From Candidatus Woesearchaeota archaeon (lineage in GTDB: Archaea > Nanobdellota > Nanobdellia > Woesearchaeales > JACJVW01), in assembly GCA_020637435.1 (NCBI GenBank), contig JACJVW010000001.1, positions 433,060 through 497,059 on the forward strand: 64,000 bases of DNA. Reading direction: 5' to 3'. The translations under genes were made by a program, and so were the position numbers. Positions 1,087-23,700 of the stretch are shown piece by piece. Within the stretch, counting starts at the first letter, position 1. Every line of letters begins with the position of its first letter. Under the pieces are notes generated by a model. The model was not told the DNA's origin and did no database searches. It worked only from the letters and a program-made list of their open reading frames with translations.

Positions 1087-3003
1087 TTAATGTCGGATCG
1101 TAACATTGATGACTTCAGGCTGTGCCCGAAGATTCTTGACGACAGTGTCCAGGATAGTGATGTCTGGTTCCTCAACCTCAAGGAAGATATTGAACAGATG
1201 CTCCTTGCCATGCCTGGTGTTTACGTTCCTGATCACCAGACGATTGTGCACAAAATAATCCAATACTTTAGTCAGGATACCTTCCTTATCCTCAAGCGTT
1301 ATGATAACCAGCATGCGCCGCCGGGGGATCTTCTTCCATTTGATAGGGATCTCCTTACCACCTTGGATGGAAAAGACATTGGCGCAATCTTTCCTGTGCA
1401 CAGTCACCTTCTTATCCTTGGTCTGGTATGCGACGATTGCGTCACCAGCCTCAGGCGAGCAGCATTTTGAGACCTTAAGCTGACCAAGGCGCTTATCATA
1501 GTCCAAAAGGTCAGGAACATGAGGCTCACCGAACAATGACTCTGCATCATGTTTAGTATCAGCCTCTATCGATATGCCAAGCTCACCGCGAATCTTGCTC
1601 TTGGCTTTTGTACTGACGACAAAGTTCAGCCACTGCCTTGATGGTTTGGCATTCTTTGAAGTGATGATCTCAACAACCTCTCCAGGCTTAAGCACGGTAT
1701 TAAGCGCGACCGCTTTACCGTTCACAAGAGCTTTAGAACAATGATTGCCTACCGCAGTATGTACCTCATACGCAAAATCGATAGGTGTTGCACCCTCTCG
1801 AAGCGTTATCGGATCCCCTTTAGGAGTGAAGACTACGATCTCATCCTCAAAAAGGTCAAGTTTCAGCGTCTCGATAAAATCTTGGGCATTCTCACTGTGC
1901 CGCCCCCATTCCAGGATCTGCTTCAACCACGAAATCTTCTGGTCAAACTTCTTGTCCCTATCTGTACCATGGTAACGCCAGTGCGCAGCGACTCCATCCT
2001 CTGCGAAATGATGCTGCTCCTCCGTTCTGATCTGCACCTCGATTATCTTGTTCAACGGTCCTTCAAGGCCAGTGTGCAAACTCTGATACCCGTTACCCTT
2101 AGGATTAGCAATGTAATCCTTGAATCGTCGAGGTATCGGCTTCCAAAGCTCATGAACGATACCAAGTGCCGTGTAGCAATCCTTGATATTCTTCACAAGT
2201 ATTCTGATTGCGATAAGGTCATAGATCTCATCGATGTCAAGATTCTTCTTGATCATCTTCTTGTAGATGCTCATAAAATATTTTGCACGCCCGGTGACCA
2301 GGGCATTCACCCCTTTCTTCTCAAGAGCCCCTTTGATTCGGTTGATGATCTCCTCCGTCGTCTGTTCCCGTTCAGCACGTTTCTGGTTGATCCGTTTTTT
2401 AAGATACTGGTACACTTCAGGTTGCAGATACCTAAGGGAAAGATCTTCAAGCTCACCCTGTATCCAACCCATGCCAAGCTTGTGCGCTATAGGAGCGTAT
2501 ATATCAAGTGTCTCCTGAGCGATACGTTGTCGTTTCTCAGGCCTAAATGTGCTGAGCGTCTGCATATTGTTCAGCCGGTCAGCAAGCTTCACAAGCATAA
2601 TCCTGATATCTTTGGTCGTTGCAAGCAATACCTTGCGCAAGTTCTCAGCGGTGTAATCTTCCTTCGTCTCAAAATGCACTTTATCGATCTTAGTAAGACC
2701 ATCGACGATGCCTGCAACATCAGCTCCAAATTCCTTCTCGATATCCTTGATAGTCCAGGACGTCTCTTCAACCACATCATGCAGCAATGCCGCGCTAAGT
2801 GTAGCGCTCCCCGCTTTAAGTTTCATAAGAATTTCAGCGACCCCAAGAGGATGGATAAAATACGGGTCACCCGTAGAACGTTTCTGGTCTTTGTGCGCCT
2901 CTTTGCTAACCTCGTAAGCCCTGCGAAGCATCTTAAGGTCAGGGCTCGGATTGTACTCCTTGACCCTCCCCAAAAACTCCTCACACGTCATCATCTGCGC
3001 CAT
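1087..3003 (-). CDS. Bifunctional (p)ppGpp synthetase/hydrolase, long RelA/SpoT homologue (HD, synthetase, TGS and ACT-like regions), 638 aa
   Basis: The N-terminus MAQMMTCEEFLGRVKEYNPSPDLKMLRRAYEVSKEAHKDQKRSTGDPYFIHPLGVAEIL matches the HD hydrolase domain. Downstream RelA/SpoT synthetase-like and TGS-like (GDVVEIIT-like) segments follow. A TATA-like atttttaaaa lies at 3032-3041, about 30 nt upstream. Confidence 0.85.
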   Translation of the reverse strand: MAQMMTCEEFLGRVKEYNPSPDLKMLRRAYEVSKEAHKDQKRSTGDPYFIHPLGVAEILMKLKAGSATLSAALLHDVVEETSWTIKDIEKEFGADVAGIVDGLTKIDKVHFETKEDYTAENLRKVLLATTKDIRIMLVKLADRLNNMQTLSTFRPEKRQRIAQETLDIYAPIAHKLGMGWIQGELEDLSLRYLQPEVYQYLKKRINQKRAEREQTTEEIINRIKGALEKKGVNALVTGRAKYFMSIYKKMIKKNLDIDEIYDLIAIRILVKNIKDCYTALGIVHELWKPIPRRFKDYIANPKGNGYQSLHTGLEGPLNKIIEVQIRTEEQHHFAEDGVAAHWRYHGTDRDKKFDQKISWLKQILEWGRHSENAQDFIETLKLDLFEDEIVVFTPKGDPITLREGATPIDFAYEVHTAVGNHCSKALVNGKAVALNTVLKPGEVVEIITSKNAKPSRQWLNFVVSTKAKSKIRGELGISIEADTKHDAESLFGEPHVPDLLDYDKRLGQLKVSKCCSPEAGDAIVAYQTKDKKVTVHRKDCANVFSIQGGKEIPIKWKKIPRRRMLVIITLEDKEGILTKVLDYFVHNRLVIRNVNTRHGKEHLFNIFLEVEEPDITILDTVVKNLRAQPEVINVTIRH

Positions 3004-3146
3004 ACAGACTACTAATATCCCGATATTTTTAAAACTCTCCTTTATAAGGCATATTGGGTGCAGTACAATGGAGCTATGTGTCTAAAGGATAGGGAACCAA
3101 TTAATGCTTTGTTCAGGCGAACAATTTGCCCACAGGGCTCATACTT

Positions 3147-3230
3147 CCGTACTATTGCTTCTTTCTCTTTCAAAACATCATACCTGAGAAACAATCTAAT
3201 TAACGTACACTAAAAGAGAAAGAAGTACGG
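3147..3230. repeat. Long imperfect inverted repeat (hairpin) immediately 3' of the tRNA on the minus strand
   Basis: Arm 3147-3170 ccgtactattgcttctttctcttt is the reverse complement of arm 3213-3230 aaagagaaagaagtacgg apart from a 6-nt bulge. That gives a 6 bp plus 12 bp stem with a 42-nt loop. Confidence 0.6.
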
Positions 3231-3359
3231 GCCTGATGGGATTCGAACCCACGGTCTACAGCTCTCTTTCACCCGGCAGAGTGTAAATGCCCTGCATATG
3301 GTATAGAAGGCTGTCGCCCTATATGCCCAATTTGGATTTCCAGGCTAGGCTACAGGCCC
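3228..3359 (-). tRNA. tRNA-Arg(TCT), about 132 nt, with a predicted anticodon-loop intron (~40 nt after position 37) and a second insertion or intron in the D-loop
   Basis: Minus-strand sequence GGGCCTG TA GCCT AGCCTGG...GGGC G ACAGC CTTCTA [TACCATATGCAGGGCATTTACACTCTGCCGGGTGAAAGAG] A GCTGT AGACC GTGGG TTCGAAT CCCAT CAGGCCC. The acceptor stem GGGCCTG/CAGGCCC, the T-arm GTGGG-TTCGAAT-CCCAT and the anticodon stem ACAGC/GCTGT with loop C-U-UCU-A are all present. The anticodon TCT gives Arg. The overlength D region implies a second intron. Confidence 0.7.
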
Positions 3360-3386
3360 ATATAAGCAATCTGTGTTCCAAAGCGG

Positions 3387-3394
3387 TTTATAAA
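3387..3394 (-). promoter_or_regulatory. TATA box (tttataaa) about 28 nt upstream of the tRNA 5' end
   Basis: The palindromic TTTATAAA lies at the position expected for an archaeal TBP/TFB promoter relative to the tRNA start at 3359. Confidence 0.55.
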
Positions 3395-3476
3395 TATTTC
3401 TGGCAGAGTAGTATGTCCATAGGTGAAGCACAGATTCAGCCCTAGAGATTACACAGAGAGTCAACATGTTGTTGGA

Positions 3477-4124
3477 TCAAATTTGATTTCTATTTCGGTG
3501 TGACAGGTAAAGAATAAGCAAACCCGGTATGATACTTGTCCAAATATGACCAAAGACAACCAGTAGAAAAAAGACAAAAGGATCATATATAGTCTGTTCA
3601 GCCTTCACCCAGAAAAAACCATGTACAAAATTGATATTCTTCTCCGGTGGCGAAACAAGATAAGTAATCGTAAAAACTAAAACCGATTCAAAAAATGCCC
3701 AAATCCCAACGTCCCACGAAAATTTTCGTATCCGTAGTATACAGTAGAGTGTCAAAGGCACAAAAAAAACATGACTAAGTGAGAGGAGATTTCTGATAAA
3801 CGGCCTCCCCTCTTCAAATAAGTATAGTGAATTCCCTGATAAACCAAATCCAAAAGCAAGATAGAGCAGCAGATCAAGCATCCACCACAATTGATACGTT
3901 GCGACCAGAACAAACTGCATACTCACCAGTTTCCAGTTCCTCCGCAGCAGCCCGATACCTGTTAGCAAGAGTACAATCCTGCAAAGGTACATAAGATTGA
4001 CCGCATCTGTATACAACAGTGTAACTACAACGTCAACAGCCCAAAAGAGGATGAAAAAATAACCTATCCACGCTAAGGCATCCCATTTCTTTGGAATGAA
4101 AATATTGAGCAATCTATGTAGCAT
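3477..4124 (-). CDS. Polytopic membrane protein of unknown function (215 aa, about 6 predicted TM helices)
   Basis: Long ORF with several hydrophobic 20-residue stretches (FFILFWAVDVVVTLLY, IVLLLTGIGLL, FVLVATYQLWWMLDLLLYLAFGF and others). No recognisable catalytic motif. Confidence 0.55.
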   Translation of the reverse strand: MLHRLLNIFIPKKWDALAWIGYFFILFWAVDVVVTLLYTDAVNLMYLCRIVLLLTGIGLLRRNWKLVSMQFVLVATYQLWWMLDLLLYLAFGFGLSGNSLYLFEEGRPFIRNLLSLSHVFFVPLTLYCILRIRKFSWDVGIWAFFESVLVFTITYLVSPPEKNINFVHGFFWVKAEQTIYDPFVFFLLVVFGHIWTSIIPGLLILYLSHRNRNQI

Positions 4125-4233
4125 ATACAGACTACCTGCTCCTGAGGTTTATTATACTTTTCTTGAACAGTATCAAGATAAAAAAGGATTACCGTTCAAA
4201 ACCAATAAATAATCCGCCAAAAACCATCAACCA

Positions 4234-5022
4234 ATGGCAAGCCTGCAAACAGAGCATTTCGACCTCGCCCTCACCCTTCGGTCAGGACAGTTCTTCCACT
4301 TCATCGAAGAAGACGGCTGGTTCTATGTCCACCACAAAGACCGAATAATCAAGATTCGTCAGGACCGCAACAAGCTCATGTACCATGGTGCAACGAACAA
4401 AACAATCACTCACTTCCTCTCACTTGACAAAGACCTGACCAACATCAAAAGGAAGTGCAAAACAGGAATTGAAAAAAAGGCCTTCGAGCGCTTCGGCAAA
4501 CTTCGATTGCTCCGCCAGGATCCTTGGCACGCGAGCATCACCTTCATCTGTTCATCCTGCGCCAACATGGCAAAGATTAGAAAGAATATTTTCCTCATCT
4601 CAGAAAAATTCGGCGCTCAGACCAAGCAGCACAGCAAATCATTCTACCTATTCCCAGAAAAAGGCGACCTGACTTGCGAATCAACTCTGCGTTCATGCGC
4701 CACTGGCTACCGCGCCCCGTTCATTGCAGCATTTAACACCAGCTCAACCACATCCCTACAAAACCTAGACTATAGCACCGCAAAAGAACAGCTCATGCAG
4801 TACCCCGGCATCGGCTCAAAAGTAGCTGACTGCATTCTCCTCTTCGGCTATGGTTTTGGCGAAAGCTTTCCACTCGACATCTGGATGCGCCGCATCATGC
4901 AGCGCAAGCTCGGCAACATATCCGATAAAGAAATTCTCAACTACGCAGCACACACCTACAGAAAGGACGCAGGCTACATCCAGCAGTACCTCTACATGTA
5001 TGCCATAGAAAACCATAAATAA
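4234..5022 (+). CDS. ogg: 8-oxoguanine DNA glycosylase / HhH-GPD family N-glycosylase-DNA lyase (262 aa)
   Basis: The N-terminus LALTLRSGQFFHF is the Ogg-type motif. A C-terminal helix-hairpin-helix and Gly/Pro-rich loop with catalytic Asp is present (QLMQYPGIGSKVADCILLFGYGFGESFPLDIWMRR). Confidence 0.75.
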   Translation: MASLQTEHFDLALTLRSGQFFHFIEEDGWFYVHHKDRIIKIRQDRNKLMYHGATNKTITHFLSLDKDLTNIKRKCKTGIEKKAFERFGKLRLLRQDPWHASITFICSSCANMAKIRKNIFLISEKFGAQTKQHSKSFYLFPEKGDLTCESTLRSCATGYRAPFIAAFNTSSTTSLQNLDYSTAKEQLMQYPGIGSKVADCILLFGYGFGESFPLDIWMRRIMQRKLGNISDKEILNYAAHTYRKDAGYIQQYLYMYAIENHK

Positions 5023-5044
5023 AGCAGGGCTCCCATGCACCGTC

Positions 5045-5665
5045 ATGAAAGCACTAGTAGTACTCAGCGGAGGCATCACTCAGGACGGCCTTTTGGAGTG
5101 GACAAAAAATCGATGTGATAAAGCAGTAGAACTCTACACCGGAAACGAGCTCATCATCACATCAAGTGCATACACACCGCACAAACCCCCGTTCCTAAAT
5201 GATGGCAACCCCATCACAGAAGCGCGCCAGATGGCTGACTACATCTTAAGCAAAGGCGTGAAACCTGAACACATGCGCATCGAAGCATTTTCATTAGACA
5301 CCCTTGGCAACGCCATCTTCACCAGACAGCTCATCACCGAACCAGAACAGGTGCATGACCTGACCATCATCACCTCAAGCTTTCACATGCCCCGCTCAAA
5401 ACTCATCTTCGACTACGTCTTCAGCCTCCAACCAGTAGGTAAGTACAATCTCCAATATGTAGAAGTCAGTGACGGCGAACAAAACCAAAAAGCCATAAAA
5501 GCAAGAAGCGTAAAAGAACAGGAACGCATCGAACGCTTCAAAAAAACCATGGCAATAAACCAGGATTTAAAATCACTCATAACCTGGCTCTTCACCATCC
5601 ATAACGCATACAACTACGACCTCATCTATGAGAAATACGACAAGATTCTCGAAGACAGCTATTAG
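5045..5665 (+). CDS. DUF218 (YdcF/SanA/ElyC-like) domain protein, 206 aa
   Basis: MKALVVLSGGITQDG...ITEARQMADYIL...LDTLGNAIFTRQL...IITSSFHMPRSKLIF matches the conserved DUF218 pattern (VVLGGG..., E...S.nT.eNa, VTs.fHm.Ra). Confidence 0.7.
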   Translation: MKALVVLSGGITQDGLLEWTKNRCDKAVELYTGNELIITSSAYTPHKPPFLNDGNPITEARQMADYILSKGVKPEHMRIEAFSLDTLGNAIFTRQLITEPEQVHDLTIITSSFHMPRSKLIFDYVFSLQPVGKYNLQYVEVSDGEQNQKAIKARSVKEQERIERFKKTMAINQDLKSLITWLFTIHNAYNYDLIYEKYDKILEDSY

Positions 5666-6024
5666 GTAAGCGTCTTCACTAGCTCTTCCAGCCGAGGTTC
5701 TAGTGCGCTATTGTAGCAGACGATAGGTATTTCATAAGCAAGCGCCAGTTTGATCTCCTGCTCCATACCTTTTGAGATCACCGGACCGCAGAGCCAGACC
5801 TCATCCATCGTCCTGCGCTCAAAATGCTCCCGATTGGCAAGCATCCCAAGCTCCCGTTCCTCAACCAGATGGTCATCCAGATATTGCAGAGCGACAAGAT
5901 AAGGCGCGAACGGAATGATATCATCATTGTCCATATGCACATCCCGACATATCTCAAGGATATGTCGGACATTTCGTTCAACATTGCCGCTCACCTGATG
6001 AGCGATATATACAAGCTTACCCAT
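5662..6024 (-). CDS. Hypothetical protein, 120 aa, possibly a nucleoside-2-deoxyribosyltransferase-like Rossmann fold
   Basis: The ORF overlaps the upstream stop by 4 nt. A KLVYIAHQVSG N-terminal strand-loop suggests a flavodoxin-like fold, with no strong motif. Confidence 0.4.
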   Translation of the reverse strand: MGKLVYIAHQVSGNVERNVRHILEICRDVHMDNDDIIPFAPYLVALQYLDDHLVEERELGMLANREHFERRTMDEVWLCGPVISKGMEQEIKLALAYEIPIVCYNSALEPRLEELVKTLT

Positions 6025-6132
6025 AAGAAAAGAAAGAGTTCACAGATTTATATGCCTAACCGATGTCCAATGTAAAAGAGACAAAAAGGATATGGGTATC
6101 ATAGTCGACTCTGTGTTTGAAAAAAGAGAGAA

Positions 6133-6882
6133 TCAATAATAATATTCAGCCTTGATGACCTTTTCAGTCAGCTTCATGTAATCCTTAGCGCCGTTGCAGC
6201 TCTTTGCATACTCAAAGATAGTCGTACCTTTTCCAGGCGCCTCCTTAAGTTTACTGTTCACACGGATAGGTTGGCTGACCAGGTCTGAGAATCCTTTCTT
6301 GATCTCTCCAAGAACCTGGATACTGGACTTGATGCGTTTATCATACATCGTCGGGATAACCATAGTTATCTGCAGATTATGACCAAACAATTCATTAATC
6401 TCATCGATGGTCGATTGCATCTTCTTAAGCGCATCTAGTGCAAGATACTCAGTTGCGACAGGGATGAATGCTTCGTGAGCATACAAAAGTGCGTTCTGGT
6501 TCAGTAGACTTATGCTTGGAGGACAATCGACGATAACATAGTCATACCGGGTTATGCTTTGCAGAGCGCGCTTTAGCACAGTCTCTCTGCTTGACACGCC
6601 AGCAAGGATCATCTCTGCCTCAGAAAGCTTGCTGTTGCTGGGGATAATATGCAGAAACTCAGTCACATGCTGAATCGCGTCTTCCGGATCCTCCCCGTTG
6701 ACAAGCACATCATACATCGTCTTATCAGCAGGTAAGCAGAAATGAGTATTGATATTACCTTGAGGATCAAGGTCGATGACCAAAACCTTCTTATTCTTCT
6801 TCGCAAGGCCAGCGGCCAGGCTTATCGTCGTCGTGGTCTTGCCCACTCCACCTTTTTGATTAATGACACAAATCTTCCTCAT
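6133..6882 (-). CDS. parA: ParA/MinD-family P-loop ATPase (Soj-like), 249 aa
   Basis: The deviant Walker A MRKICVINQKGGVGKTTTTISLAAGLAKKNKKVLVIDLDPQGN is diagnostic. No parB or other partner is adjacent. Confidence 0.85.
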   Translation of the reverse strand: MRKICVINQKGGVGKTTTTISLAAGLAKKNKKVLVIDLDPQGNINTHFCLPADKTMYDVLVNGEDPEDAIQHVTEFLHIIPSNSKLSEAEMILAGVSSRETVLKRALQSITRYDYVIVDCPPSISLLNQNALLYAHEAFIPVATEYLALDALKKMQSTIDEINELFGHNLQITMVIPTMYDKRIKSSIQVLGEIKKGFSDLVSQPIRVNSKLKEAPGKGTTIFEYAKSCNGAKDYMKLTEKVIKAEYYY

Positions 6883-7118
6883 CGTTCACCCCTGTCAGCA
6901 AAGTGAGCGAATGCACAATATGAAGATTATTATACAAGGAAGTTTGTTATGGACTTCGGTAAGAGCCAAGAAGTGTCCAACCACTGTATAATAATGGAGC
7001 ATTCGCGAGCTTTGCTGGTGATGTGCACGTAAAAGCACGTACATTCCGTAGAAAGTAACTTAAATATAAAGATATTGGTTTCGTATCACTCACGAGTAAG
7101 AATAAACTATCGAAAATA

Positions 7119-7826
7119 ATGGCAAGAAAAACCAAAGAGAAATGGAAGACCTACGGCAATGTATTCGATGAGTTCACGCTCCGCAATTTGTTCCAGCTAT
7201 CGTCTAGAGGGTTTTTCGAAGAGCTACAAAGCCCGATCAAGATTGGCAAGGAAGCCAACATCTTCACCGCTGTCACCAAAGACAGCACGACAGTCATCGT
7301 CAAGATCTACCGTCTCGAGACCTGCGACTTCAACCGCATGCTGGATTACATCAAGACTGACCAGCGCTACGTCAACATAAGAAGATCGCGAAGGAAAATT
7401 ATCTTTGCTTGGACGCAAAGGGAGTTTCGAAACATCATCAAAGCCCGGGAGGCAGGCGTCAAAGTCCCTACCCCTTACATCTTTAAGGACAATATCCTCG
7501 TCATGGAGCAGATAGGCAGTCCAAAACCAGCACCTCAACTAAAGGAAGCATATCCCGAAGAGCCAGAAGCGTTCTATCAGACGACTATCGACTACATGCG
7601 CATGATGTACCTGCACGGACTCATCCATGGTGACCTTTCACAATTCAACATCTTAAACGACAACGACAATCCGGTATTCATAGATTTCTCTCAAGGCCTT
7701 ACTACCGAAAGCCATGGATGGCAGGACTATCTTAGGCGTGACATCAAAAACGTCGCCAACTTCTTCAAAAAACTCGGCATCGACTCCGATCAGGATGACC
7801 TCTACACCCAGATTACCCATAAGTGA
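7119..7826 (+). CDS. rio1: RIO-type serine/threonine protein kinase (Rio1-like), 235 aa
   Basis: GKEANIFTAV matches the RIO ATP-binding loop. LIHGDLSQFNIL matches the catalytic loop and IDFSQGL the metal-binding loop. Confidence 0.8.
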   Translation: MARKTKEKWKTYGNVFDEFTLRNLFQLSSRGFFEELQSPIKIGKEANIFTAVTKDSTTVIVKIYRLETCDFNRMLDYIKTDQRYVNIRRSRRKIIFAWTQREFRNIIKAREAGVKVPTPYIFKDNILVMEQIGSPKPAPQLKEAYPEEPEAFYQTTIDYMRMMYLHGLIHGDLSQFNILNDNDNPVFIDFSQGLTTESHGWQDYLRRDIKNVANFFKKLGIDSDQDDLYTQITHK

Positions 7827-8465: not shown

Positions 8466-8755
8466 TGAAGAAGTATCCAAAAATAGTGCAATGTGACAAG
8501 CGAGGTCAGATAGTCATACCTAAAGACCTCCGAAATGAGCTCGGCATAGAAGAAGGCACTGGTTTTTGGATGTATGCAATCACCGATGAAGGTATTCTGC
8601 TCAAGAAGGTCGAAAACCCTGAGCTTGGGGAACACACCGACATGCTCCATGAGCTCAATGACAAAGCAGACAAGATAGATCTCTCACGTGAGAATCTTGG
8701 ACAGTCCATCGAGGAATACAAGAAGAAGAGGCAGGGCAACCTGGATGTAATATGA
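8465..8755 (+). CDS. AbrB/SpoVT/MazE-family swapped-hairpin DNA-binding protein (96 aa)
   Basis: KRGQIVIPKDLRNELGIEEGTGFWMY is the AbrB-type N-terminal beta-barrel motif, followed by an acidic C-terminal tail. Its stop overlaps the giant ORF start by 4 nt (ATGA at 8752-8755). Confidence 0.75.
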   Translation: MKKYPKIVQCDKRGQIVIPKDLRNELGIEEGTGFWMYAITDEGILLKKVENPELGEHTDMLHELNDKADKIDLSRENLGQSIEEYKKKRQGNLDVI

Positions 8756-11700
8756 GGGGGCGCACGATACTTGGTTGGTGTATGATACTTTTCGTGCTAG
8801 CTTTAAGCCTCAGCGCTTCTGCCCAGGAGCTTACTCACACCCAAGTCGAGATCGGCAAACCGGTCACCTGGAAGAAAGTCGTTTCAGACGTACCTGCAGA
8901 CGGCACGCTCAATGTCTATGTTGACAAAGATGCCCGGGACGTCAGAGTGGATGGAAGATCTGACATCACTATCAAAGAAGCTTCGATATGGGACACCTTC
9001 GTCCAAAGCTTTGGCTCAGTGACAGGTTTTGCAGTAAGCGAAGCAGGTACTGAGATCGAGTTTGAAGCGAAAGAAGGTGACGCATACACTATTGTCTACG
9101 AAACAGAAGCACCTAAAGTCTACGAATCACAAAAACAAAAGGACGATAAGCTCATCAAAGAGGTAACCATCTCCTCAGACTATCATTATACTGACATCCT
9201 TAGTTACACAGACATTCCGGAAGTGGAAGCAGAGCAAATCAAACTCTACCATAAACAGGGTGGCATCTTCTTCAAAAATAAAATAGACATCACTTCCGAT
9301 GAATCTTACCGGGTAGAATTCATGGATACCAACGGCAATGGACTTATTGACCGTGTAAAATGGGTAACGCCCCACCTTTCCACCCAGGAATTCGAAGTGG
9401 AAATCACAGTCCTTAACGTTCAGAGCTATCCGCTCATAGGTGGCAACTGGACTATCCGGTTTACTACCGCAGGTACCGCAGACCTCGCTATAAGTGCCTA
9501 CATGGGTACAACCTATGGTGAGACGCTGCCGGATGACCTGTGGCCTATTGAACTTCGTTGCGATGATACTCCGTTGGCCCCTATCTTCAACGGAACTCAT
9601 GTCGTCTATGAGGACTTCTCCTGTGATGGTGTCGCCTACCACACAGTGAAGGTCCTCACAGGCGGTAAACATTACCAGGAATTGACCTTCGGCGATGCGA
9701 CAGCGCATGCACAAAACGATGCGGGCACCGTCACGCTCTCATTCCACCATGCGGCAGGATGTAGTGGCCCCTCCACGATAACATCCTCCTCACGGGCGAA
9801 TGAGAGTGATAGTATTTACATCCTGGTTTCTTATTCGAATGATGAGAACGGCGCTGAGAATACGATAGTGGACATTACAGGCTATGTATCTGGCTGTTCT
9901 CTGGCTTCACCCGGTAATTGCTTCGGCGATGACACGCCTGCTGCGAGCACATCATCCTGCTTCCTAAGCAATTTCCCCATTCCAACAGGCCTGAGTGATT
10001 CTGAATCTGTTACAGTATCTGTCCAGAATAGCACTGGTTCCGTTGCAACAACATCCTCTACGCTCTATATCAATCATGCCCCAGGTGTCGCGGTCGCAAT
10101 CACCCCTGCAAGTCCCCTCATAGGTGAGCAGATCACTTGCACCGGAACCGTAACAGACACGGATGCAGGAGACTCTTTTACAGCAAGCTATCTCTTCGAT
10201 GTGATGGGTTCAATTGTCGACAGCGGCAGTGTGGTCTGTTCAGGAACAACCTGTACCGCCACCTGGACTTCCTCAGGGGTCAATGATGGCGACACCATAA
10301 CCTGCAATATGACGGCAATGGACAGTAATGGACTTACTAGTCCTCAGGTCGCGTCATCTGCTGCCACATTCACCACAATAAGCATCAGTCCAACTTCAGC
10401 AAGTATAGAACGTATGGGTACGCAGACCTTCACGGTCTCTGGTAGTACAGCAACTCCTTTTACCTGGAACCTTTCGGGAACTCCCGTGAATGGTTCAGCA
10501 TTCAATCCCGCAAACCCTACTACCTCGTCTGCGACAGTACAGGGACTGGAAGTGGGTTCCTATGTAGTTAATGTAACTGACAACAACGGTGCATGGACCA
10601 CAGCCACATTGACTGTCACTGACACGAACGCTCCAGCGCCTGCAACGAATGTTGTCGCGGCCGACACTCCTGGCGACCAGGGGGATAATATCACGATAAC
10701 CTGGAGCATCTCTACCGATGACGGCCAGGGAGACAATGATGTAGCCAACTATTCTGTCCTAAGGTCGACCAGCCCTACATCAGGATTTGCTGCCGTTTCT
10801 GGAGCGCTTCCCCCAGGCACAGAGATTTTTGTCGACACAACAGTCCTCCCTGATGTCAGCTATTATTACCGGGTCAGGACCATGGACATCAGTGGCAATT
10901 TTGTCGATTCTGATATCTCCGGACCTGTCAATCTCAACGGCCAGCCCATCATGCAGGAGATAATCTATTACCCGTTAAGTCCGTCTGCCCAGGATAATAT
11001 AACCTTTGTAGCATTCGCGACAGATACCGACAACGAGACGGTGACGATGAACTACACGGTAGAAGTCACTGCCTTTGACGGAGGTACTAACTATCAGGAA
11101 AGCGGAGAGGCCTGGTGCTTCTTCCTTGGTCACGGCATGAGTCAATATGGTACGACATATGCAGAGCCGACAACTGAATGTACGGTAACACTAGCATCCA
11201 GCCACTTCACCAAAGCGGACAAAGTGACTATCACTTTCACCCCTCATGACGGACAGGAGGCAGGAGACCCGCTCTCGCTAAATGGATTCATCGTTATCAA
11301 CAACAGCAGGCCAAACGCATCCAATGTATTTGTCTCGCCGATAAATCCTAACCAGTCCTCTGTGCTCAGCTGTAATTATACGTTCACCGACTTCGATGGA
11401 GACATGGAGAATACGTCCCAGGCTCGTTTCAGATGGTACATCAATAATGAAGGACTCAACGACTTTGTACTTGTGCCTGGCTACACCAGCCGGACAATTT
11501 CAGGAATCTTCGACAAAGACGACATTATCAAATGTGCAGTACAGGTCAAAGACATTGATTCCAGTTGGTTAAAACAACCTCTATACGCATCCGCATATGC
11601 TACATCAACAGAGATCACAATAAAAGACAATGCGATCCCTCAGATCATAGATTACTGGATCTCTGCAAATAACACTAACCCTGCGGCACCAGGAGATGAC

Positions 11701-14700
11701 ATCTACTTCAATGTAAGCTGGGTCGACTACGAAGACCCAAGCGACCAGGCTAGGATGTACGTCTGTGACGCATGGGAAGATATTGAGAATCAGTACGATG
11801 GTGGAACCTCTGAGATCTTCTTTGGTGATGATACAGCAAATGCTGATCAAGAAGTAAGACTCTATACGAACGAGACTGGCCAGTACGTCTACACCCTGGC
11901 AATCAAACCTACAAAATTCATCGAAAACTCCTTTACTACATACAGTCCAGGCTCCACCGTCACCGCAGGAGATGTCTTCGTAGGCTCAGCACTCCTCGAC
12001 TTCCCTCCTTATTACACTTATTATGATGCTGACCACAGCGACACATATACCCTCGGTGAGTCCATTATATGGGATAATCAGTCCATGGGAACGAACAAGA
12101 CATACAACGCGCAATACGACGTAGTCATCTACGGTGATGAAGTGGTTGATGGCAGTTCTCTAGTCAGGTTCAACGAGAGCAATATCCACACCTTTTATGA
12201 CTCAGACAGCAGCGGGACTTACACTACAGGAGATGACATCTACCTTGACAGCGGTGCAACCCCTAATCAGGTTGATGCAGGCGATGTAAGGGTAAGTATA
12301 GTCTCCAACCGGCCCTCTGCGGAGACACTTTCAACCTCCTTCATTTACGACATCATCGTCCGTGAAGTGGACAATATCGGTGATACGACCGGTCTAGTCA
12401 TAGCAAGGGACAATGACAATACCTTCACCCTTGGAAAATACAACTATTTTGTCCCGCAGTATAATGCTCAACCACTTCCTGGAAAATATCTCATGTTCAC
12501 CATCTGCATAGATGTTGATAACGACGATACTTGCGACTCAGATTCGGACAATTTCAATGATATGGTCTTTTTCAAAGCAGATCCCGCACCAGGAGCAGGT
12601 TATCAGGCGTACAATGGAACGGGCTCAGTGCACTACAACCCGGATATCAGGTTCAACTATGGTGCAAGCGAAAGCCCAGGTTGTGCGGGAGCAACCTACT
12701 GCAGCACTCCCAATTCTCCTCTCAACGATATTTCCTGCACCTATGAAGCGGTCTTCGAAAATTCGTGGAACAACACAGTCAATCTCAAGGTCTGTGATGA
12801 GCACGATGCTTGCTCTGTCAACAGAGTAGCAAACTTCTTTGTGAATCACATCCCTATAATTTCAGATCTTACCATAAACAGCAGTATAGACGGTGTCAAT
12901 ATTGACGCAGTCAATAATTTCAGCACTAGCAGGAACCTTATATGTAATTACACTGCTTCAGACAGTGACCCGCAAGGCAATACTATCGGCTTAAGCAGCG
13001 TCATCTGGTTTAAGAAAAGCCAGAGCGCAAGTGTCTTCCAGCGTGCGATAGTCCCAAACAGCACTTTACTCGCGAACAGTAATACCGAACCAGGAGACCA
13101 GTGGATCTGCCAGATCACGGTGCATGATGATTTTGATAATTCGCTAGGGACCAACTCATCTCCTGTAACGATCCTAAGTGCGCAGGGTGACGAACTGACC
13201 ATCCTATCAGTTTTTGATGATTCCTCCTTGACCGCACCTGTACTGTTGGATGAAGACGTTACCATCGAGGTCTCCTTCCTCTACACGGGAACCGATGATG
13301 TCAAAGTCTATGTCTGCAACTCTTCGTCCATAACCTCGGGTGGCTGCCTTGATCACACCTACGCAGCCACGGATTTCGTCTCGGACAACCCGATCAATGT
13401 AAGCTGGGAGGCAGATGCTCCTGGAACACACAGATACTACGTCAAGGTCTGTGATGAGTCATTCAGATGTTCAGCGGTGGTAGGGACGTCTACTGAATAC
13501 AATTACACCGTCAATCAGCGTCCTATTGTCAACTCAACGCTCCTTACGACGTATACTGGTTCGACCAACTACACAGACGCTGACCCCCTCAACTGTACCT
13601 ACATAGGCAACGACCAGGATAGCATAGGTACGGGACTAAACGCGACCTACACCTGGTTCCTCAGAAGATCAGGAGGGGCGTTCCAAAAGATTGCATTACC
13701 TCCGACAACCGCAACGATCGCAGAATCACAGACTATTCTCGGCGATGTATGGATCTGCCAGGTTGACCTTTCAGATGGTTACCATAGCGCGGATGCGCTC
13801 AACAGCAGCCCCGCATTCATTCAGAGCCTAAGTACGGGAATTATCGGCATAACTGATGTGAACGATACAGTAGGCAGTGTCGTTGAGCTCGGAGATTCCA
13901 TCGACATCGACGTCTACTGGCAGTCTGCTACCGGCGATAACGCAAAGGCATTTATCTGCAATTCCACGAGAGTGCTCGCAAGCGGTTGTCTTGATGGTAC
14001 CATTATGGAGACGAGTTATACCTCAGCAAATCCTATCTCTGCATCCATCACTCCGACAATAGGGGGGTTGCAGTATTATTATGCCATGGTCTGTGATACC
14101 TCCTGGAACTGCTCATATGTCCAAAGCTTTGACAGCAAAGGCAATAGGTTGAATTACACGGCAAACACCCCCCCTGTCATCGGATATGTTACCGTCAACA
14201 CGACTACTGACGGACTTACCCCGGACGGTCTGCAGAATTACACGGTGGACACACACCTGATCTGCAATTTCTCCATCTCGGACCCGGACATGCTTTCTGA
14301 ACCAAGTTTTGAGATTGCATGGTACAAAAATGGCCAGAAAGTAAATTTCCCTTCAGTCACTGCGATTTCAAAATGGAATACGCAGGGAGGCGAACTATGG
14401 AGTTGTGGGGTCACTCCTATAGACGAATACGGAACTTATCCGGAAATGATTTCACAAAGTGTATTCATCACGGGCATCTCTAATGAAATTGTAGTAGTTG
14501 AGAATATCACTGCTAACTACAATGAGAGCAACCCTCTACTCAATGGACAAGCTGTAACCTTCAACCTAAAGGCGATGAGCCTCAACAGCGTCTCCTGGTT
14601 CGCATACATATGTAATACCTCAAACATAGACGTCACAGGCTGCTGGGATGACCAATTCGCAACAATATCGACTGCAACAGAGGAATCCACAGCATCCTAC

Positions 14701-17700
14701 ACCACAGTCTACGAAGATCACGGAGTGATACCTTATTATGTACTGATCTGTGATACCACGTTCAACTGTTCACAGGTACAGGGAGTTGACACTGCCCTTA
14801 ATTTCACGGTTAACCATCGCCCAGTCCTTACTTATGTGCGGTTGAACACGACAGATCTTACATCAAACTTCACCAGTGACCGCAATCTGATCTGTCAGTT
14901 ATCTTACAATGACCCTTACAGCTACAACAATGGCTACAACATTTCATACACATGGTACAGGAATGGCATCCTGCAGGCATACCCTAGTAGCATGGATGTG
15001 CTCTCCAACACACAGACACAGACGGACGATGAGTGGTACTGTGAAGCTCAGGTCAGCGACGGCTATCATTCAAGTGATGTGGTTGCCGCGGCATTTGTCA
15101 ATATCAGTGACTACGCGCCAGGTTCCGTCTGGATAACGAACTTGACGACAAACAGTAATTCCAGCTCTTACCTCAGGTACCCTTCCAATGTTACCTTTAA
15201 TATTACCTGGAACTCGACAGAGATTCTTGATGTGCGGGCATTTATCTGCAGCAATAGCAGTATCGGCCCTTCTGGATGTCTCCAGACTACTATCGCCCAA
15301 AGCGGATACACCCGCAGTAATCCGATAGAATTGACCTACCTAACAACCAATAATGAATCAGGACCTACTGACTACTATGTGAAGCTCTGTGACACCTCCT
15401 TCAATTGTTCAGGAGTCGCAGGCATTAGTATACCTCAATACTACTACATCAATCAACCCCCTATTGAGACCGCTGTCTGGATGAACACGACAGACGGAAC
15501 AGACAATTTCACCAGTGACAGGAACATCATCTGTAGATATACTGCTATGGACCGGGACGATGTAAATGCGAGCGACCCACTTATACCTGAATATTATTGG
15601 TGGGTGGGATCTACCGATGACAATATGGAGTTGGTGGAAACAAGCACAAGCACACAAGTACTGACAAACAACAACTATGAACCTGGTTACTATGTACAAT
15701 GCGGCGTTCGCACTTCCGATGGGATGCACTTTGGAGACGGAACTTTCAGCCAGGCACAACAGATAAGCACCGAAGTAGTAGAAGGGATAGTTATCTCAAA
15801 TGTCACCCACAACTCGCCAACAGAGACGCCGGTGACCGAAGGCAACGTTATCCTATTCTCCATCGACTGGTACAGCAGCTACGGCCTTCCTGTAAGAGCA
15901 CACATCTGCAGCTCACCAGACTTCAACTACAGTGGCTGCTATAACACTACTCTTGCTGCATCAGGTGGTTTCTCAAGCACAAACCCGCTCATAGTAAGCA
16001 TGGCCACTAATGGATCGGAGCCGACCATACAGAACTACTGGGCAAGGATCTGTGACAACAGTTACAACTGTTCAGAGCCGTTCCCTGAAGCAGGAATAAA
16101 TCTGAATGTATCCGTCAACCACCGACCTAATGCGGTGAATGTGACTGTCAGACAATTTGATCAGTACAGTACTACGGGATTGCTCATCTGCAACTACTCT
16201 TTTAATGACACGGATATGGACCCGGAGAACGCAACTTTAGCTACATTCCTCTGGTACACAGTAACCAACAGCGTCAAATCCCTTATACCAGGACAGAACG
16301 AAAGGTTCCTCGAGGACGCGTTCAGTTATGGAGATGAGATAACCTGTAGCGCAAGAGTCGCAGACAACCATTCAGTCAGCGACAATCAGTTCAGAGATGC
16401 CAATAATACCATAAGATTCAGCGCGATACCACCTAAACCCGTCCTTTGGAATATGCCCTTTGCAGTATCTGCAGCAACAGGTAATAGGATGATAGGGTAT
16501 TTCGGTATACCTAACGTCAATTACTCAGTCCACCTGCGGCAGGAATTCAATGTGACAACGCCCGTCACCAACACAACCTCTACGGATAGCAGGTACTTCG
16601 GTTTCGCTTTCCCGGTCTACAAGGCTGCCAATAAATCTGCGTTCGTCATAGTTCACCGCGACGATCTTGACCTGTTCCAGACTGGAAGATACATCTCCTA
16701 CGACAACCATAACCGGACATACTTTGCACGATACAGGATAACAGGCAACGAAGATCTCTTCGACGATACTTACAAGGTATTTACTTCGCCTGCACTGGAG
16801 CACAATATTACCTCCTCGACCGCGATTTTCGTCTACAACAGTACCTATCCTTCAGGATGGTTCAATATGTCATTGCCATCCTTATTCGTAGGTGAAAATA
16901 CCATCAGGATCAGGGGACTGTCATCCTATGGCAATGGACCTTACCTGAATCAGACCCTCTACCTTGATCTGGAGAACCCGACCATAAACATATCCAAAAT
17001 AGGCAACTACAGTTTCAGCCACATGTCGACCATCTACTGGTCCGTCTATGACAATATCTCCCTTAAAGACATGCTCCTCCAGGTTTCTAACAGTTCAGAA
17101 ATAGTCAACTACACACTCTACGATTACAACTTCAATGACACTGACACTCAGATAGTCTGCGATGGCAATCTGACAGACCAGGACTGCCGGGTGGAGATCT
17201 ACCTCAATAATAATACCCTGCACAACCTCACATTCACAGTCACTGACAGTTCAGGAAGAAGCACGACTGAAGTACGCTATGACTACGTCGTCAATACCTC
17301 AGTGCTCCCGGTCATACTTGTCTACCAGGGTTTCATAGATGATGCTCTTGACGAGCACATCCCCGCGACCATCGCTACCAATACAACATTCACCGCAAAC
17401 TGGACCTCTGATGCACATGCCATAACACGTTACTACGAAGTCAAGATAGTAGAATATGAAGGAGACCTTCTTGTCAAAGACATGACCAACTGGACTGAAG
17501 TTGGCAAAGAGAGAAATTGGACTGCGACCGTGCCTGCACGAAACCAGTATATCTACAAATTCCATGTAAGGTCTCTATACCAGGATCTAAGCTACAGCGA
17601 AGAATTTGTCAGTGAGGGCATGTTTTATTTCGTGGATGAAGCTCCGGTCTGCATTGATTGTGTCAGATTTGTAGGCACAGATAACGGCGGGCAGACATTC

Positions 17701-20700
17701 ACAAATTCACCAGACACCATGAAAGTGGCTTGGAACTTCACAAGCGAAGCTCCTATAACTCGCTACAGGTACGCGATAGGAAAAGTAAAGTACCCTTCGC
17801 CTGGCTACAACTCTCATGCGTACAGCAACGACTATCTCAATGATGAGATAACGATAATTAAGACCATGACCGAAGGTGATCAGTATTACGCCGCTGTCAG
17901 AGCGATGAACGAGAATGGCATCTGGAGCCCCTGGTCAATAACCTTGGGCAATCTTACCGTTGACTTGACAGCTCCACAGGGTGGTTCAATAACATACCCA
18001 ACAGGATTGGTCTCTACAAACTTCTCGGTATCCTACAACGACGGGTATGACGACATCAGCGGAATTAAGTCAAGAGTACTCTATCGTGCTACCGCTCAGT
18101 TGATCAATGGGCAGTGCCAGGGATTGTATGTCTACTACCCTGTCAACAGTACCATCATACCGGGGTCAGGAAGCTACACACAGGTCATAGGCAATGGTCT
18201 TTGTTATCGGTACAAGTACATGGTCACAGACTATGTGAACAACACAGCATCATACTTCAAGGGAGAACCGTACGATGTGAAGACAGACACTACCCCTCCC
18301 AATAGTTTCAGTGTCGTCCTGAACAATGGATATTACATCACCTCATCATCAACCTTCACCGTTGACTGGACAGACAGCGCAGATGCACAGTCAGGACTCT
18401 CTCATTACAGCTACATCATCACTGAGGATGACAAGCAGATAGGCAACTGGACTAACATTACAGTTGGCAACACAACAGTGACATTTGCTCAGGTAACCCT
18501 GCCAGATCCGAGGCACCAGGCAAGCTACAGAGTTATCGTAGTTGCTCACAGCAGGAACGGTCTGACGACCCAAGTCACAAGCAATGCTGTCGCATACATA
18601 GATATTGCACCTCCATCCCCTCTTGAGCTGCTGCAGTTTGAGAATCAGACAAATATCACTACTGATAATCTTGTTGATCAGGTGAACAACAATATGACCA
18701 ATATCACCTTCCGGGGTGAGAATGGTATCAGTTGTGTCGCTTCCGTCTACCCCATAGACTATGAGATGTACGATGTATCAAAAACATACCTGACTAACTG
18801 CTCAACGGCAAACGACAATGTAACATGCAGATTCAATACGACAGAGACAGCATACTACACAAGATACATCGTCTGCAGTGACTACGCAGGCAATATGCAA
18901 TTTGTAGATGATGCTCTCAATATTACTTGGAAAGTCGATTTCATAGGTCCTGACATCAATATGACGACCAGTATACAGGGCGAAGTGCTTGGCGAGATGA
19001 TTCTGTTCAACCTTAGTATTACAGACCTCACCGCTGTCGACACAGTCATCTATGAGATAGTAAACGCGACCAGCATGTCGCAGATATTTGACTCAGGTAA
19101 ACTGACCGGTGATGAGATTTACAGCCTACTGTGGAACAGCACTGAATACTTCGCAGGTCAGACCGAACTGCTTACTATCATAATTACAGCAAATGACACA
19201 AATGGTTTCATCCAGAAATTGTTCACAAACTTCACAGTCGATAACACAAGACCTGTCATCAATATTGTCAGTCCTAATCTCAACAACAGATTCTTCAACC
19301 AGAATTTCACGCTTGATGTGCGGGTAAGAAATCCCTTCTACAACACCTCGCTTGGGATCTACAGTATGAATGGCACAAAGATGCATAGCCTGTATAATGT
19401 AAGCAATGTGCTCAGATCAAGCTATGATTATGCAGGACTTGTCGCAACAGACAGCTGGCCTGATGGAAACTACACCATAAGGGTTAATGCTTCAGGAGTA
19501 AGCAATTCCATGAATAAGAGTCTGACCATATATCTTGACAGGACCGCACCATCTCACCTCCCTATTGTCAATCCAAAAGGTCCCGTCTACAATGATGCCT
19601 CAGTGCTCCTTTGGTCGTATTGGCCTATAGAATACAACTTTGTGGCTAACACCTGCGACATAGAAGAAGTACTTATCCAGCACAATGCTACCGGCACCAT
19701 GACCAACTATACAGTAGGGGCTACAGGCTACAATTTCAGTGTAATCATACCGCCTAGCCAGTTAGACAATCACGAGCAGATAGCATGGCTTGTGCATGCA
19801 AAAGATTTCAGCGGAAACTGGAACACAACTGAGCTAAAGACATTCACAGTATCCAACAGGGCTCCCTATCTGTCTCTGGTAATACCTGACCAGGACTGGC
19901 CCGTCAACATCAACAATTCTCCTGTTGAAGCAGCAATACATCTTATCGACCCCGACCAGGACACTCTTACTTTCAGCATCATCCAGCTTCCCGAGAAATC
20001 AAAGATATATGATGAATTGAACAATCCTTCGACCATAAGTGCGAATGACGGTGAATATGATGCGGTAACCTTCCTTGTGGCAAAGAACGCCAACGGAACT
20101 GCGCTTGAAAAGGCGACGACCAACATGCTTGGCAACCCTACATTTGAAGAGGGCAATATGACCTATTTGAATTCCTGGCAGGTCGTAGGTGAACCGCAGA
20201 AGAACTGGACGCTCAATATTGAAGGTAACTACAGTGTTATTGTCAATAGGAATCACTACTACATGCAGACTGTGCCGGTAACCCCTAACACAGAATACAC
20301 CTTGAGCGCGACCATGAGGTCAGTCAGTGGTACTACTCACGGCAGATTGCATGTTGATTGGCTCGATAGCACCCAGCAATACCTCGGTACCTGCCTCATC
20401 TGTGGGCTAGGTAATACTTGTGCCTTTACGCCTGAATTAACCGTGACACCGGAAAGAAAGTCTGCAAATATGACCAGTCCTTCCGGTGCGGTGTACGCTA
20501 GGATCTATGTTGACGCACAGAACAGCAGTTATACTGTAGTAGATGATATGCAATTCGAGAAAAGTAGCTTCGCTACATCCTTCGTCAATGGATCCAGAGC
20601 TGCAACATATATCGAGTATGATATTAGTTCGCACTACAATGATTCAGCGGGAACGATAGGATTCTGGTTCAGACCTTTCTGGAATACCTCATCAGATGAA

Positions 20701-23700
20701 GACCATCTGCTGCTGCAGATGTCAGCGGATTTCGCATTGTATGCTACCAAAGAAGAGAATGACTACATGCTCAGGCTAGGCGATTCCTCTACGTATACAG
20801 AAATGAATATTACTGGCTGGAATACTGATGACTGGCACTACCTGACTATAACTTATGCATCGACCATATCATGGCTCTATGTTGACGGAAATCTTATAGG
20901 AAGTTCATACAGCGATCCGAACAGTGTTACTACGTTGTATCTTGGTAAAGCCGCATCAGATTCCATCTACGCTAACGGAATATTCGACGATCTCATCTTC
21001 ATAGGAAAGACCTATAACGCGACACAGGTCCTACAGCTCAACACGAGCGGACCTGTGCTTTCATCTCCTAACATCAATTATACGATGAACTCCAGTAACG
21101 CAGTCATTTTCTATTCCTTCGACTACAACTGGTCCGGCAGTGAAGCCGCGTACATAACTGCAGATGATGGTTACGCTATTGCGGGAAGCAACGTCTTTGG
21201 ACTGACCGTCAATCCGCTCAATATAGCACCCGTCATAGCCCCTATTCCAAACCAGACTACTTGGGACAATCAGACGTGGTCCTATACGATAAACGCGACA
21301 GACGCAGACAACCATCCTCTCACCTACGTGGTAAATGCGAGCTGGATCGAGATCAACGAGAGCGGATACATGACATTCAATCAGTCACCTCTACTTAGAG
21401 GCCACTATGGTTTGAAGCTGACGGTCTGCGATAACCAGGATGAGATCAATAGCTGTGTCAATCAGACTTTTAATCTCACGATACTCTATACAGACATGGA
21501 CAGCGATGGAATCTCAGACACCTTTGATTTCATCACAGGCAATGAGACAGGAATAGTCACAAATATACCGATCACGATGATAATCGTGAACTCCAGCTAT
21601 TTCGACAATTCGACTAACACCACTTTCTTCCTTCCTGGTTCGACCAATATTAGCCAGTATTACGGAGGACTGGTGCACATTACTCTCAAGAACAGTAGCC
21701 ATGACTTTGTGGACTTTGATTTCATACTCAATGCAACATCCATCCTTGATCTCGGCAGCATAGTTATTGAAGTGAATAATGCGAACATGAGCGCGATAAG
21801 CGTAAGTGGCCTGATACTTCCAGTAAATATGACCAAGGCAGTACATCTGCAGAAGTATAACACTACCATCATGTCTGTATGCATCAAAGATAATGCGACC
21901 ACCAATATATCAGCAATATCAGTCAACTGCACCGCAGCCGATGAGATTCTCGTGCCTTGCGACAACCAGAACTATTCAGGTTACTTCTGCGAAGACAGGA
22001 ATACCACCTACAGAGTCTCTGGTCTCAACCATTCCGCAGTAAAAGAGCAGGCTGGCTGCACAGACAAAGACGGAGACGGCTACTTCTTTGGAAGTCTGTG
22101 CATAAGTTCGCCGTTGGATTGTCAGGATACTGATCAGAACAGATACCCTGGAGCTACTGATATCTGTGGAAACGGAATCGATGAAGATTGTTCAGGCGCT
22201 GACAAGAAGTGCTCAAGTAGCAGTTCAGGCGGAGGAGGGGGCGGAAGCCGGGGCGGAAGCTCAGGTTTCATCTCAAATAAGAAACAGTGCGAAGATGGCA
22301 AAGACAATGATGGAGACGGTCTTATCGACTTGCAGGACAACGGTTGCACAAAAGAGACAGATGACGATGAGAGCGACGAATGTGTCGAGAACTGGGTCTG
22401 TGGAAACTGGAATCTTTGTGTCGACGGAAAACAGACCAGATCCTGCTATGACACAAGTGAATGCAATACCTACTATGTCAGGCCGCACATGCTGCAGAGC
22501 TGTGAATACACGCCAAAAGTGATTGAGAAAGAGGTCACCTCATGTACTGATTATTCACAGAACTATGGAGAGACAGACGTAGACTGTGGCGGAGACTGCA
22601 AAGCATGCGGACTAGGCAAGAAATGCCTCTCAAATATTGACTGCGACTCTGGTTATTGTGATAGCCTGACCAAAATATGTTCAGAGCTGCTTACGGAACC
22701 TGTCCTGCCTACCTGTTCAGACATGATACAAAACCAAGGGGAAGAAGATGTTGATTGTGGTGGACCATGTGATTCCTGCAAGACTGAAAGTGCATTCTTC
22801 CAGTGGATACTCATGTTCGTCGTAGTGCTCGGTCTTCTCGGTATAGTCGCGGGAATCGCTCTGGCCGGACTGGAAAGCCGCCCAAGAAAAGAAGAACCCT
22901 TCACTGCTGAATCCCTCAAAGCGGCAGCTGAGGATACGGAAGGAAGGATATTCCTTGAATACTACAAAGGCACAGACAAAGAAAAGATCCTTCGCATAGG
23001 CAAAGCCCTTGGCATACCGAAGAAGAGAGTTGAAGACATACTGCACCTCTCCGAGTATGCCCTGCTCATGCTCAAAAGAGGTATAAGTAAAGATGTTATT
23101 GAGAGCAAACTGCTTTCAAGAGGCTGGCCAAAAGAACTCATCGAGCTCTTCTTCATCCACAACTTCATATTCAATGACCTTATGAAGAATAAGTCTATCA
23201 TCTACAAGAAGATAGAAGACAAACGTGCTGAAGGAAAGAGTGATGAGCTGATCGCCATCGAACTTAAAGAGGAAGGGTGGCCGGAAGACGTGGTCACCAT
23301 GGCTTTACTCTTTGAAGAGCATAAAGACACTCCAAAGGAACAGCCTGCGGAAGACCTGGTAGCGGATGAAATGAGCATCCTGCTGGAATTGCATAAGGGA
23401 GCTACACCGGCATCGATCAAATCGATGCTTGCTGAAAAGGGCTGGAAACCCGAAATCATCGACTCTCTTGCAAAACTTGAAGAATCCATAAGGTTGCCGC
23501 TCTCCCGCGGTACAGAACCGGATGAGATAATCAGACAGTTCACCTCCCAGGGTTGGCCTATGGAACTCATCGAGTTTGAGATACTCCTGCAGGATATCGA
23601 AATACGTGTACTTCATGCGATGAAGAACAATATTCCTGTTGAGCAGCTCATCCAGAGTCTGAAAAAAGAAGGTTATCCGGAGAATATGGTCAGGGAAGTC

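Follow-up and report, generated by a model that had tools for sequence, protein, structure and literature searches.

Two introns, one of them in the D-loop, in a tRNA-Arg(UCU) gene of a Woesearchaeota-type DPANN archaeon

The locus at 3228–3359 of the window, i.e., of the whole stretch of 64,000 nt that was analyzed, raises the question of whether 132 nt can encode a single tRNA and, if so, what becomes of the nucleotides that do not fit a cloverleaf. The sequence-only reading had proposed a tRNA-Arg(TCT) with two introns, one in the anticodon loop and one in the D-loop. It was confirmed that the 132-nt tRNA-Arg(UCU) gene on the minus strand (3359..3228) is real and that it is interrupted by two introns. 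With a probability of about 0.93, we regard the gene as functional, encoding tRNA-Arg(UCU) in a Woesearchaeota-type DPANN archaeon and containing two protein-spliced introns of the bulge-helix-bulge (BHB) type.

The precursor (3359..3228, minus strand, 132 nt) reads GGGCCTGTAGCCTAGCCTGG[AAATCCAAATTGGGCAT]ATAGGGCGACAGCCTTCTA[TACCATATGCAGGGCATTTACACTCTGCCGGGTGAAAGAG]AGCTGTAGACCGTGGGTTCGAATCCCATCAGGCCCG, with brackets around the introns. Exon 1 (pre-tRNA positions 1–20; 3340..3359, minus strand) comprises the 5' acceptor strand GGGCCTG, TA, the 5' strand of the D-stem (GCCT) and the D-loop segment AGCCTGG up to G19, and is identical or near-identical in orthologs. Intron 1 (positions 21–37; 3323..3339, minus strand) is an insert of 17 nt (AAAUCCAAAUUGGGCAU) in the D-loop after G19, delimited by a BHB scan, orthologs and covariation. 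Exon 2 (positions 38–56; 3304..3322, minus strand), also conserved in orthologs, provides ATA of the D-loop, the 3' strand of the D-stem (GGGC), G26, the 5' strand of the anticodon stem (ACAGC) and the loop positions C32-U33-U34C35U36-A37 (CTTCTA in the gene). Intron 2 (positions 57–96; 3264..3303, minus strand), of 40 nt, lies at the canonical 37/38 site and was assigned by the insertion in the Rfam alignment, the ARAGORN intron call i(40,40), a shared AAAG and folding energies. Exon 3 (positions 97–132; 3228..3263, minus strand) contains A38, the 3' strand of the anticodon stem (GCTGT), the variable loop AGACC, the T-arm GTGGG-TTCGAAT-CCCAT, the 3' acceptor strand CAGGCCC and the discriminator G. 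CCA is not encoded at the 3' end of the gene.

In-silico splicing joined the exons of 20, 19 and 36 nt to a mature tRNA of 75 nt. All stems are intact, i.e., the acceptor stem with 7 bp, the T-arm, the anticodon stem ACAGC/GCTGT and the D-stem GCCT/GGGC. With both inserts removed, ARAGORN reported a textbook 75-nt tRNA-Arg(tct), in which the acceptor stem has 7 bp, the D-stem 4 bp, the D-loop 10 nt (AGCCUGGAUA) and the anticodon stem 5 bp; the anticodon loop is CUUCUAA, the variable loop has 5 nt and the T-loop is UUCGAAU. Removal of the D-loop insert alone yielded a tRNA-Arg(tct) with a 40-nt intron, i(40,40). The sequence-only reading had named the right anticodon, gene limits (3228–3359, about 132 nt; the minus strand is a refinement) and intron sites, and in-silico splicing at these sites restored the cloverleaf. 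Its 75-nt mature species equals the computed product, and its insert of about 40 nt after position 37 is exactly 40 nt after A37; the insert in the D region also stood, at 17 nt one nucleotide shorter than the estimate of about 18 nt. In the sense of Sugahara et al. [quoted passage not shown] A split or permuted tRNA gene was rejected, as 132 nt encompass all three exons as one contiguous, colinear unit, and self-splicing group I or group II introns were rejected because 17 and 40 nt are much less than such introns require. No Rfam family except tRNA matched between positions 3100 and 3500 at E < 1, and no ribozyme intron family attained the gathering score anywhere in the window.

The gene escapes standard tRNA finders. 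ARAGORN with default settings called no tRNA in the whole window, and its intron mode called none in the gene region. At the gathering threshold, Rfam gave no match in the whole window; 28.3 bits were obtained for its tRNA model in E-value mode, with the cut-off at 29, and the alignment bridged an insertion of 42 nt in the anticodon loop. In this alignment, the 5' acceptor strand was wrong and the D-arm was missing, and it was used as a pointer only. The 5' acceptor strand was misassigned because the model was unable to bridge the D-loop insert. The T-loop motif GGTTCRAATCC matched the window once, in the tRNA-Arg(UCU) gene, and the search with this motif revealed no further hidden tRNA in the window. 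Since default ARAGORN and Rfam both miss the gene, an annotation of this genome might record no tRNA-Arg(UCU), which decodes AGA and AGG, and such a miss would feed the common impression of incomplete DPANN tRNA sets. It has been cautioned that DPANN tRNA sets are under-predicted owing to hidden disrupted genes (PMC5829648). The chief value of the finding is, thus, practical and concerns annotation.

The precursor was scanned for BHB motifs, defined by an outer helix h, a central helix H of 4 bp, two 3-nt bulges, each cut between nucleotides 2 and 3, and an inner helix h'. The best BHB in the whole precursor corresponds exactly to the D-loop intron and is of the strict hBHBh' type. Its central helix GCCU(15–18):GGGC has 4/4 pairs, the bulges are GG|A and AU|A, h has 4 bp and h' has 3 bp. 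Both the intron and exon 2 start with A, which makes the junction ambiguous by 1 nt from sequence alone; the cut after G19 (GG|A) was placed by BHB geometry. Per 128,000 start positions, the window contains about 130 BHBs with H=4, h>=4 and h'>=3. Even against this background, a BHB on the sole junction that restores a normal 10-nt D-loop is not due to chance. The outer helix uses the 5' strand of the D-stem, with the register shifted by one, so that the D-arm folds properly only once intron 1 has been removed.

The D-loop junction could be compared across 31 distinct genes in which an intron occupies this D-loop site, the window gene included. At the identical junction, the full 4-bp central helix was found in 25/31 genes and the strict hBHBh' motif in 21/31, and the bulges GG|N and AA|A are conserved. 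Pairs were counted on an alignment of the junction regions in fixed register (A1). In A1, 86.8% of the cells were in standard pairs as compared to 72.9% after shuffling (0/500 shuffles as high), and the covariation score of 0.436 exceeded that of shuffled sequences (0.169) and of slid partners (at most 0.143). All three inner-helix pairs in A1 change on both sides. Moreover, exon C16 was matched by intron G in 18 genes and by A in none, while exon U16 was matched by G in two and by A in nine (Fisher p = 5e-6). Thus, the BHB helices covary strongly across the 31 distinct genes, and the window gene is a clear DPANN case of a strict BHB intron in a tRNA D-loop with strong comparative support.

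At the 37/38 site, the BHB is relaxed. Its outer helix, the 5-bp anticodon stem, is good and the 3' bulge AG|A is well formed; the central helix CUUC:AAAG has three pairs and a C35·A mismatch, and the inner helix is 1 nt out of register. The AAAG variant of the central helix was present in 6/33 distinct 37/38 introns, namely in the window gene and in five other orthologs, and a 4/4 central helix was present in 19/33. An in-register inner helix is missing from the 37/38 introns of several orthologs. The recurrence of AAAG, the proportion with 4/4 pairs and the out-of-register inner helices indicate that relaxed 37/38 motifs are normal in this group. BHB motifs at the junctions and recovery by a tRNA finder had been put forward with the sequence-only reading as checks. 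The former were found in strict form at the D-loop and only in relaxed form at 37/38, and ARAGORN returned nothing on the intact gene by default and Arg(tct) once the D-loop intron had been removed.

Folding of the precursor gave an MFE of −55.0 kcal/mol for a non-BHB structure vs. −47.1 kcal/mol with the D-loop BHB and −41.1 kcal/mol with both BHBs. This modeled thermodynamic preference counts against the BHB reading, if weakly; it was given little weight, since covariation and the enzyme both argue for the BHB conformer. A second BHB-like element was noticed inside the 40-nt intron (3255–3287, minus strand; pre-tRNA 73–105), with a CUCU/AGAG central helix and an outer helix of 6 bp (UUUACA/UGUAGA) in competition with the anticodon stem. 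It was rejected as a real splice motif, as its excision would destroy the anticodon stem, and is probably a chance occurrence or an alternative precursor fold.

Judged by sequence comparison, orthologs in related archaea settle the two-intron reading. One set was obtained from contigs encoding RelA/SpoT homologs about 60% identical to the one adjoining the window's tRNA; the same tRNA lies beside the gene. Two loci syntenic by RelA/SpoT (L008, L010) harbor an intronless tRNA-Arg(tct), called directly by ARAGORN. A third syntenic locus (L006) contains introns at both the D-loop and the 37/38 site, of about 40 nt and 15 nt, whose sequences are unrelated to those of the window. A second set comprised 27 loci from a pattern scan of one genome per species. 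These were retrieved with a second, looser pattern; the first one, GCTGTAGNNNNNGGGTTCGAATCCCNNNNNGGCCC, had given 0 matches in the genome collection, though several loci of the looser scan appear to fit GCTGTAGNNNNNGGGTTCGAATCCCNNNNNGGCCC. Intronless genes were found at L013, L018, L019, L022, L030, L031 and L035, and those of L030 and L035 match the spliced product of the window gene at 73/75 positions, with two differences. A 37/38 intron alone is present in L016, L023, L024, L026, L029 and L032, and both D-loop and 37/38 introns in L020, L021, L027, L033, L034 and L036. The strict BHB of the L033 D-loop intron is shifted by 2 nt downstream relative to the usual site. The genes of L011, L012 and L037 have an anticodon-stem intron, an insert of about 20–33 nt within the 5' strand of the stem.

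A metagenome scan that required a D-loop insert added 28 more loci as a third set. In 11/28 of these (L038, L039, L045, L051–L056, L061 and L063), the T-loop is also interrupted, by an insert of about 30–115 nt, typically with GAAAG at its end, before TCCC. Together with the D-loop and 37/38 inserts, this amounts to three introns per gene in those loci, the third being putative. Introns vary freely at the same sites while the exons are conserved, as in L006, L020, L021, L034, L036 and the metagenome loci, and the D-loop site is occupied in 30 other distinct genes by unrelated introns of 16–46 nt. The recovered tRNA-Arg(UCU) genes thus have 0, 1, 2 or 3 introns; among the 27 genome loci, the versions with 0, 1 and 2 introns have near-identical exons.

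The exon/intron boundaries, the D-loop BHB, the covariation and the presence or absence of introns among orthologs were established directly, while the enzymes and the order of cleavage are taken from established archaeal tRNA splicing (PMC4090602, PMC5829648) and transcription is likewise deduced. An A/T-rich box AAATATTTATAAAC (3386..3399, minus strand) precedes the mature 5' end by 26 nt, and in L006, L008 and L010 the same box precedes the orthologous genes by 23–26 nt; it is likely an archaeal TATA/BRE promoter element. The pyrimidine/T-rich tract TTCTTTCTCTTTT just past the gene (3212..3224, minus strand) likely represents an archaeal oligo-T terminator. Transcription, probably from the conserved A/T box, would yield a precursor made up of a short leader and about 132 nt. 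EndA, the splicing endonuclease of archaea, would then cut within both 3-nt bulges of each BHB, releasing 17 nt by cuts at GG|A and AU|A in the D-loop and 40 nt by cuts at UA|U and AG|A at the 37/38 site. An RtcB-type ligase is predicted to join the three exons to the 75-nt tRNA, with CCA added after exon joining. No EndA or RtcB gene was found within the 64-kb window, and no tRNA_int_endo domain was detected among the 26 window ORFs scanned.

Other explanations of the locus have to be weighed against two spliced introns. If the gene were a tRNA pseudogene in decay, with two insertions accumulated and processing to a functional tRNA lost, its omission by ARAGORN and by Rfam at the gathering score, the relaxed 37/38 BHB and the gene order near the tRNA, which is rearranged relative to relatives, would be accounted for. 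However, no stem is broken, and the exons have remained 73/75 identical to those of intronless orthologs, compared to an identity of only about 60% for the adjacent RelA/SpoT protein. The promoter-like box has been conserved, the relaxed AAAG variant was found again in five other orthologs, and the inserts are located exactly where 30 other distinct genes have BHB introns with compensatory changes. Decay is, therefore, considered very improbable.

Retention of the 17-nt insert in the mature tRNA as an enlarged D-arm, with the 37/38 insert as the only intron, appears no more probable than decay. Orthologs carry inserts of 16–46 nt at this position in which only the BHB core is conserved, many lack the insert altogether, and the strict BHB with its 3-nt bulges sits exactly at the junction; the covariation supports the BHB helices. 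A retained insert would be suited by the stable extended hairpin of the MFE fold, in which GCCUAG(10–15) pairs with UUGGGC of the insert. A different tRNA was proposed by ARAGORN at lowered thresholds (-i -ps95), namely a tRNA-Val(TAC) whose intron has 43 nt and whose variable arm is long, a model seen only below the default threshold. Its D-stem has only two paired positions, one of them a G-U wobble, its anticodon stem contains an A/C mismatch, and a long extra arm is atypical for Val. Since the orthologs, intronless ones included, are all Arg(TCT), this is the least probable of the alternatives. A functional tRNA-Arg(UCU) gene with two protein-spliced BHB introns, thus, remains the preferred reading.

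The neighbors of the gene in the window are archaeal and include RIO1 kinase, topoisomerase VI A and B, a PAN-like AAA ATPase and an archaeal flagellin/pilin. The RelA/SpoT protein adjoining the tRNA is 100% identical to NCBI MCB9362265.1, and among the matches listed its closest homologs are, where an organism is named, from Woesearchaeota, Nanoarchaeota or Nanobdellota. The host was accordingly placed among the uncultured DPANN archaea. It is a full-length long RelA/SpoT homolog of 638 aa (1087–3003, minus strand) with HD, RelA_SpoT, TGS and ACT domains, for which at least 8,000 candidate homologs were found at E <= 1e-30. Matches in named DPANN relatives suggest that (p)ppGpp metabolism is widespread in the group. 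Directly upstream of the tRNA, an ORF of 215 aa (3477–4124, minus strand) has no Pfam domain and a single database match, a 148-aa protein with 99% identity across 68% of the query; the ORF might be an orphan gene, or might not be a gene. As one match provides no usable relatives for a synteny anchor, RelA/SpoT was used instead.

The region 3228–7826 is rearranged relative to L008 and L010. In these relatives the tRNA is divergent from RelA/SpoT, and genes for deoxyhypusine synthase and an Orn/Arg decarboxylase lie between the tRNA and ParA/RIO1; in the window the two are co-oriented, and OGG, DUF218, DUF7768 and the orphan ORF occupy this interval. Elsewhere in the window, a giant ORF of 5,078 aa (8752–23988, plus strand) has a weak Cu-binding_MopE hit as its sole precomputed Pfam match. 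Frame 1 is open from 46960 to the window end at 64000 (plus strand; at least 5,679 codons) and is probably a second giant protein gene that runs past the window; its start is overlapped by a 185-aa ORF with a phage-integrase domain (46451–47008). This DPANN-type tRNA-Arg(UCU) was also found in several third-party-annotated MAG records titled 'uncultured Methanosarcinales archaeon' (L011, L012, L020, L022, L024, L027, L030, L033 and L034). RIO1 and ParA of L022 are 68–69% identical to those of the window, a level equal to that of a Woesearchaeota-labelled MAG. On these sequence grounds, the Methanosarcinales labels on those records look wrong.

Beyond the single gene, tRNA-Arg(UCU) of Woesearchaeota-type DPANN archaea might represent a lineage-wide polymorphic intron series (D-loop after G19, anticodon stem, 37/38 and T-loop) with zero to three introns per gene, in which the D-loop intron would be old and homologous and would have been repeatedly lost and remodeled. 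The odds for this proposal are considered about even. The old and homologous origin is suggested by the conserved GG|N ... AA|A bulges and the covarying central helix of the D-loop intron. The many relaxed-BHB junctions would imply a broad in vivo specificity of the poorly characterized DPANN endonuclease, for which an alpha4 form with an L3 loop has been reported. If true, the series would be a natural set in which to follow how tRNA introns are gained and lost outside Thermoproteales. A tRNA family with zero to three introns offers material for questions of intron turnover and endonuclease specificity. In the literature searched, no description of this tRNA-Arg(UCU) intron series (D-loop, anticodon stem, 37/38, T-loop) was found, which is absence of evidence only.

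For Crenarchaeota and Nanoarchaeota, there is good documentation of multi-intron tRNAs and of tRNA introns at non-canonical sites such as 20/21, 22/23, 25/26, 56/57 and 59/60 (PMC4090602), and tRNA-Pro(UGG) of Pyrobaculum islandicum is interrupted by introns at 25/26, 37/38 and 56/57 (Sugahara et al. 2007, cited in PMC4090602). Like these multi-intron tRNAs of Thermoproteales and Crenarchaeota, with two to three BHB introns per gene, the genes described here have introns at non-canonical sites in the D and T regions, and intron content varies between related species. Unlike them, the host belongs to DPANN and not to TACK, and the endonuclease would be expected to differ: DPANN EndA types are alpha4 with an L3 loop, alpha2beta2 or epsilon2, while the crenarchaeal enzyme is alpha2beta2 with a CSL (PMC5829648).

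The pre-tRNA-Glu(UUC) of Methanopyrus kandleri has a D-loop (20b/21) and a 37/38 intron, which are cleaved in vitro (Kaneta et al. 2018, PMC5829648). The window gene resembles it in combining a short D-loop intron with a 37/38 intron in a single colinear gene, with removal by the endonuclease there and its predicted removal here. The two differ in tRNA identity and phylum, and the D-loop sites are 1–2 nt apart (after G19 here, 20b/21 there). Furthermore, BHB strictness is reversed, as in M. kandleri the D-loop motif is relaxed (HBh') and the canonical one strict, whereas in the window gene the D-loop motif is strict and the canonical one relaxed. Within DPANN, disrupted tRNA genes are substrates of the epsilon2 EndA of ARMAN-2 (Fujishima et al. 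2011, PMC3239211), and a survey including one Woesearchaeota genome linked L3-loop endonucleases to increased tRNA gene disruption (PMC5829648). With these genes, the window gene shares the superphylum, non-canonical and multiple introns and relaxed BHBs. Our understanding of how such introns work is not changed, and the gene is ordinary for archaeal tRNA biology. Multi-intron tRNAs with a D-loop intron have already been described in Thermoproteales, for M. kandleri tRNA-Glu and in DPANN, and the window gene fits that picture.
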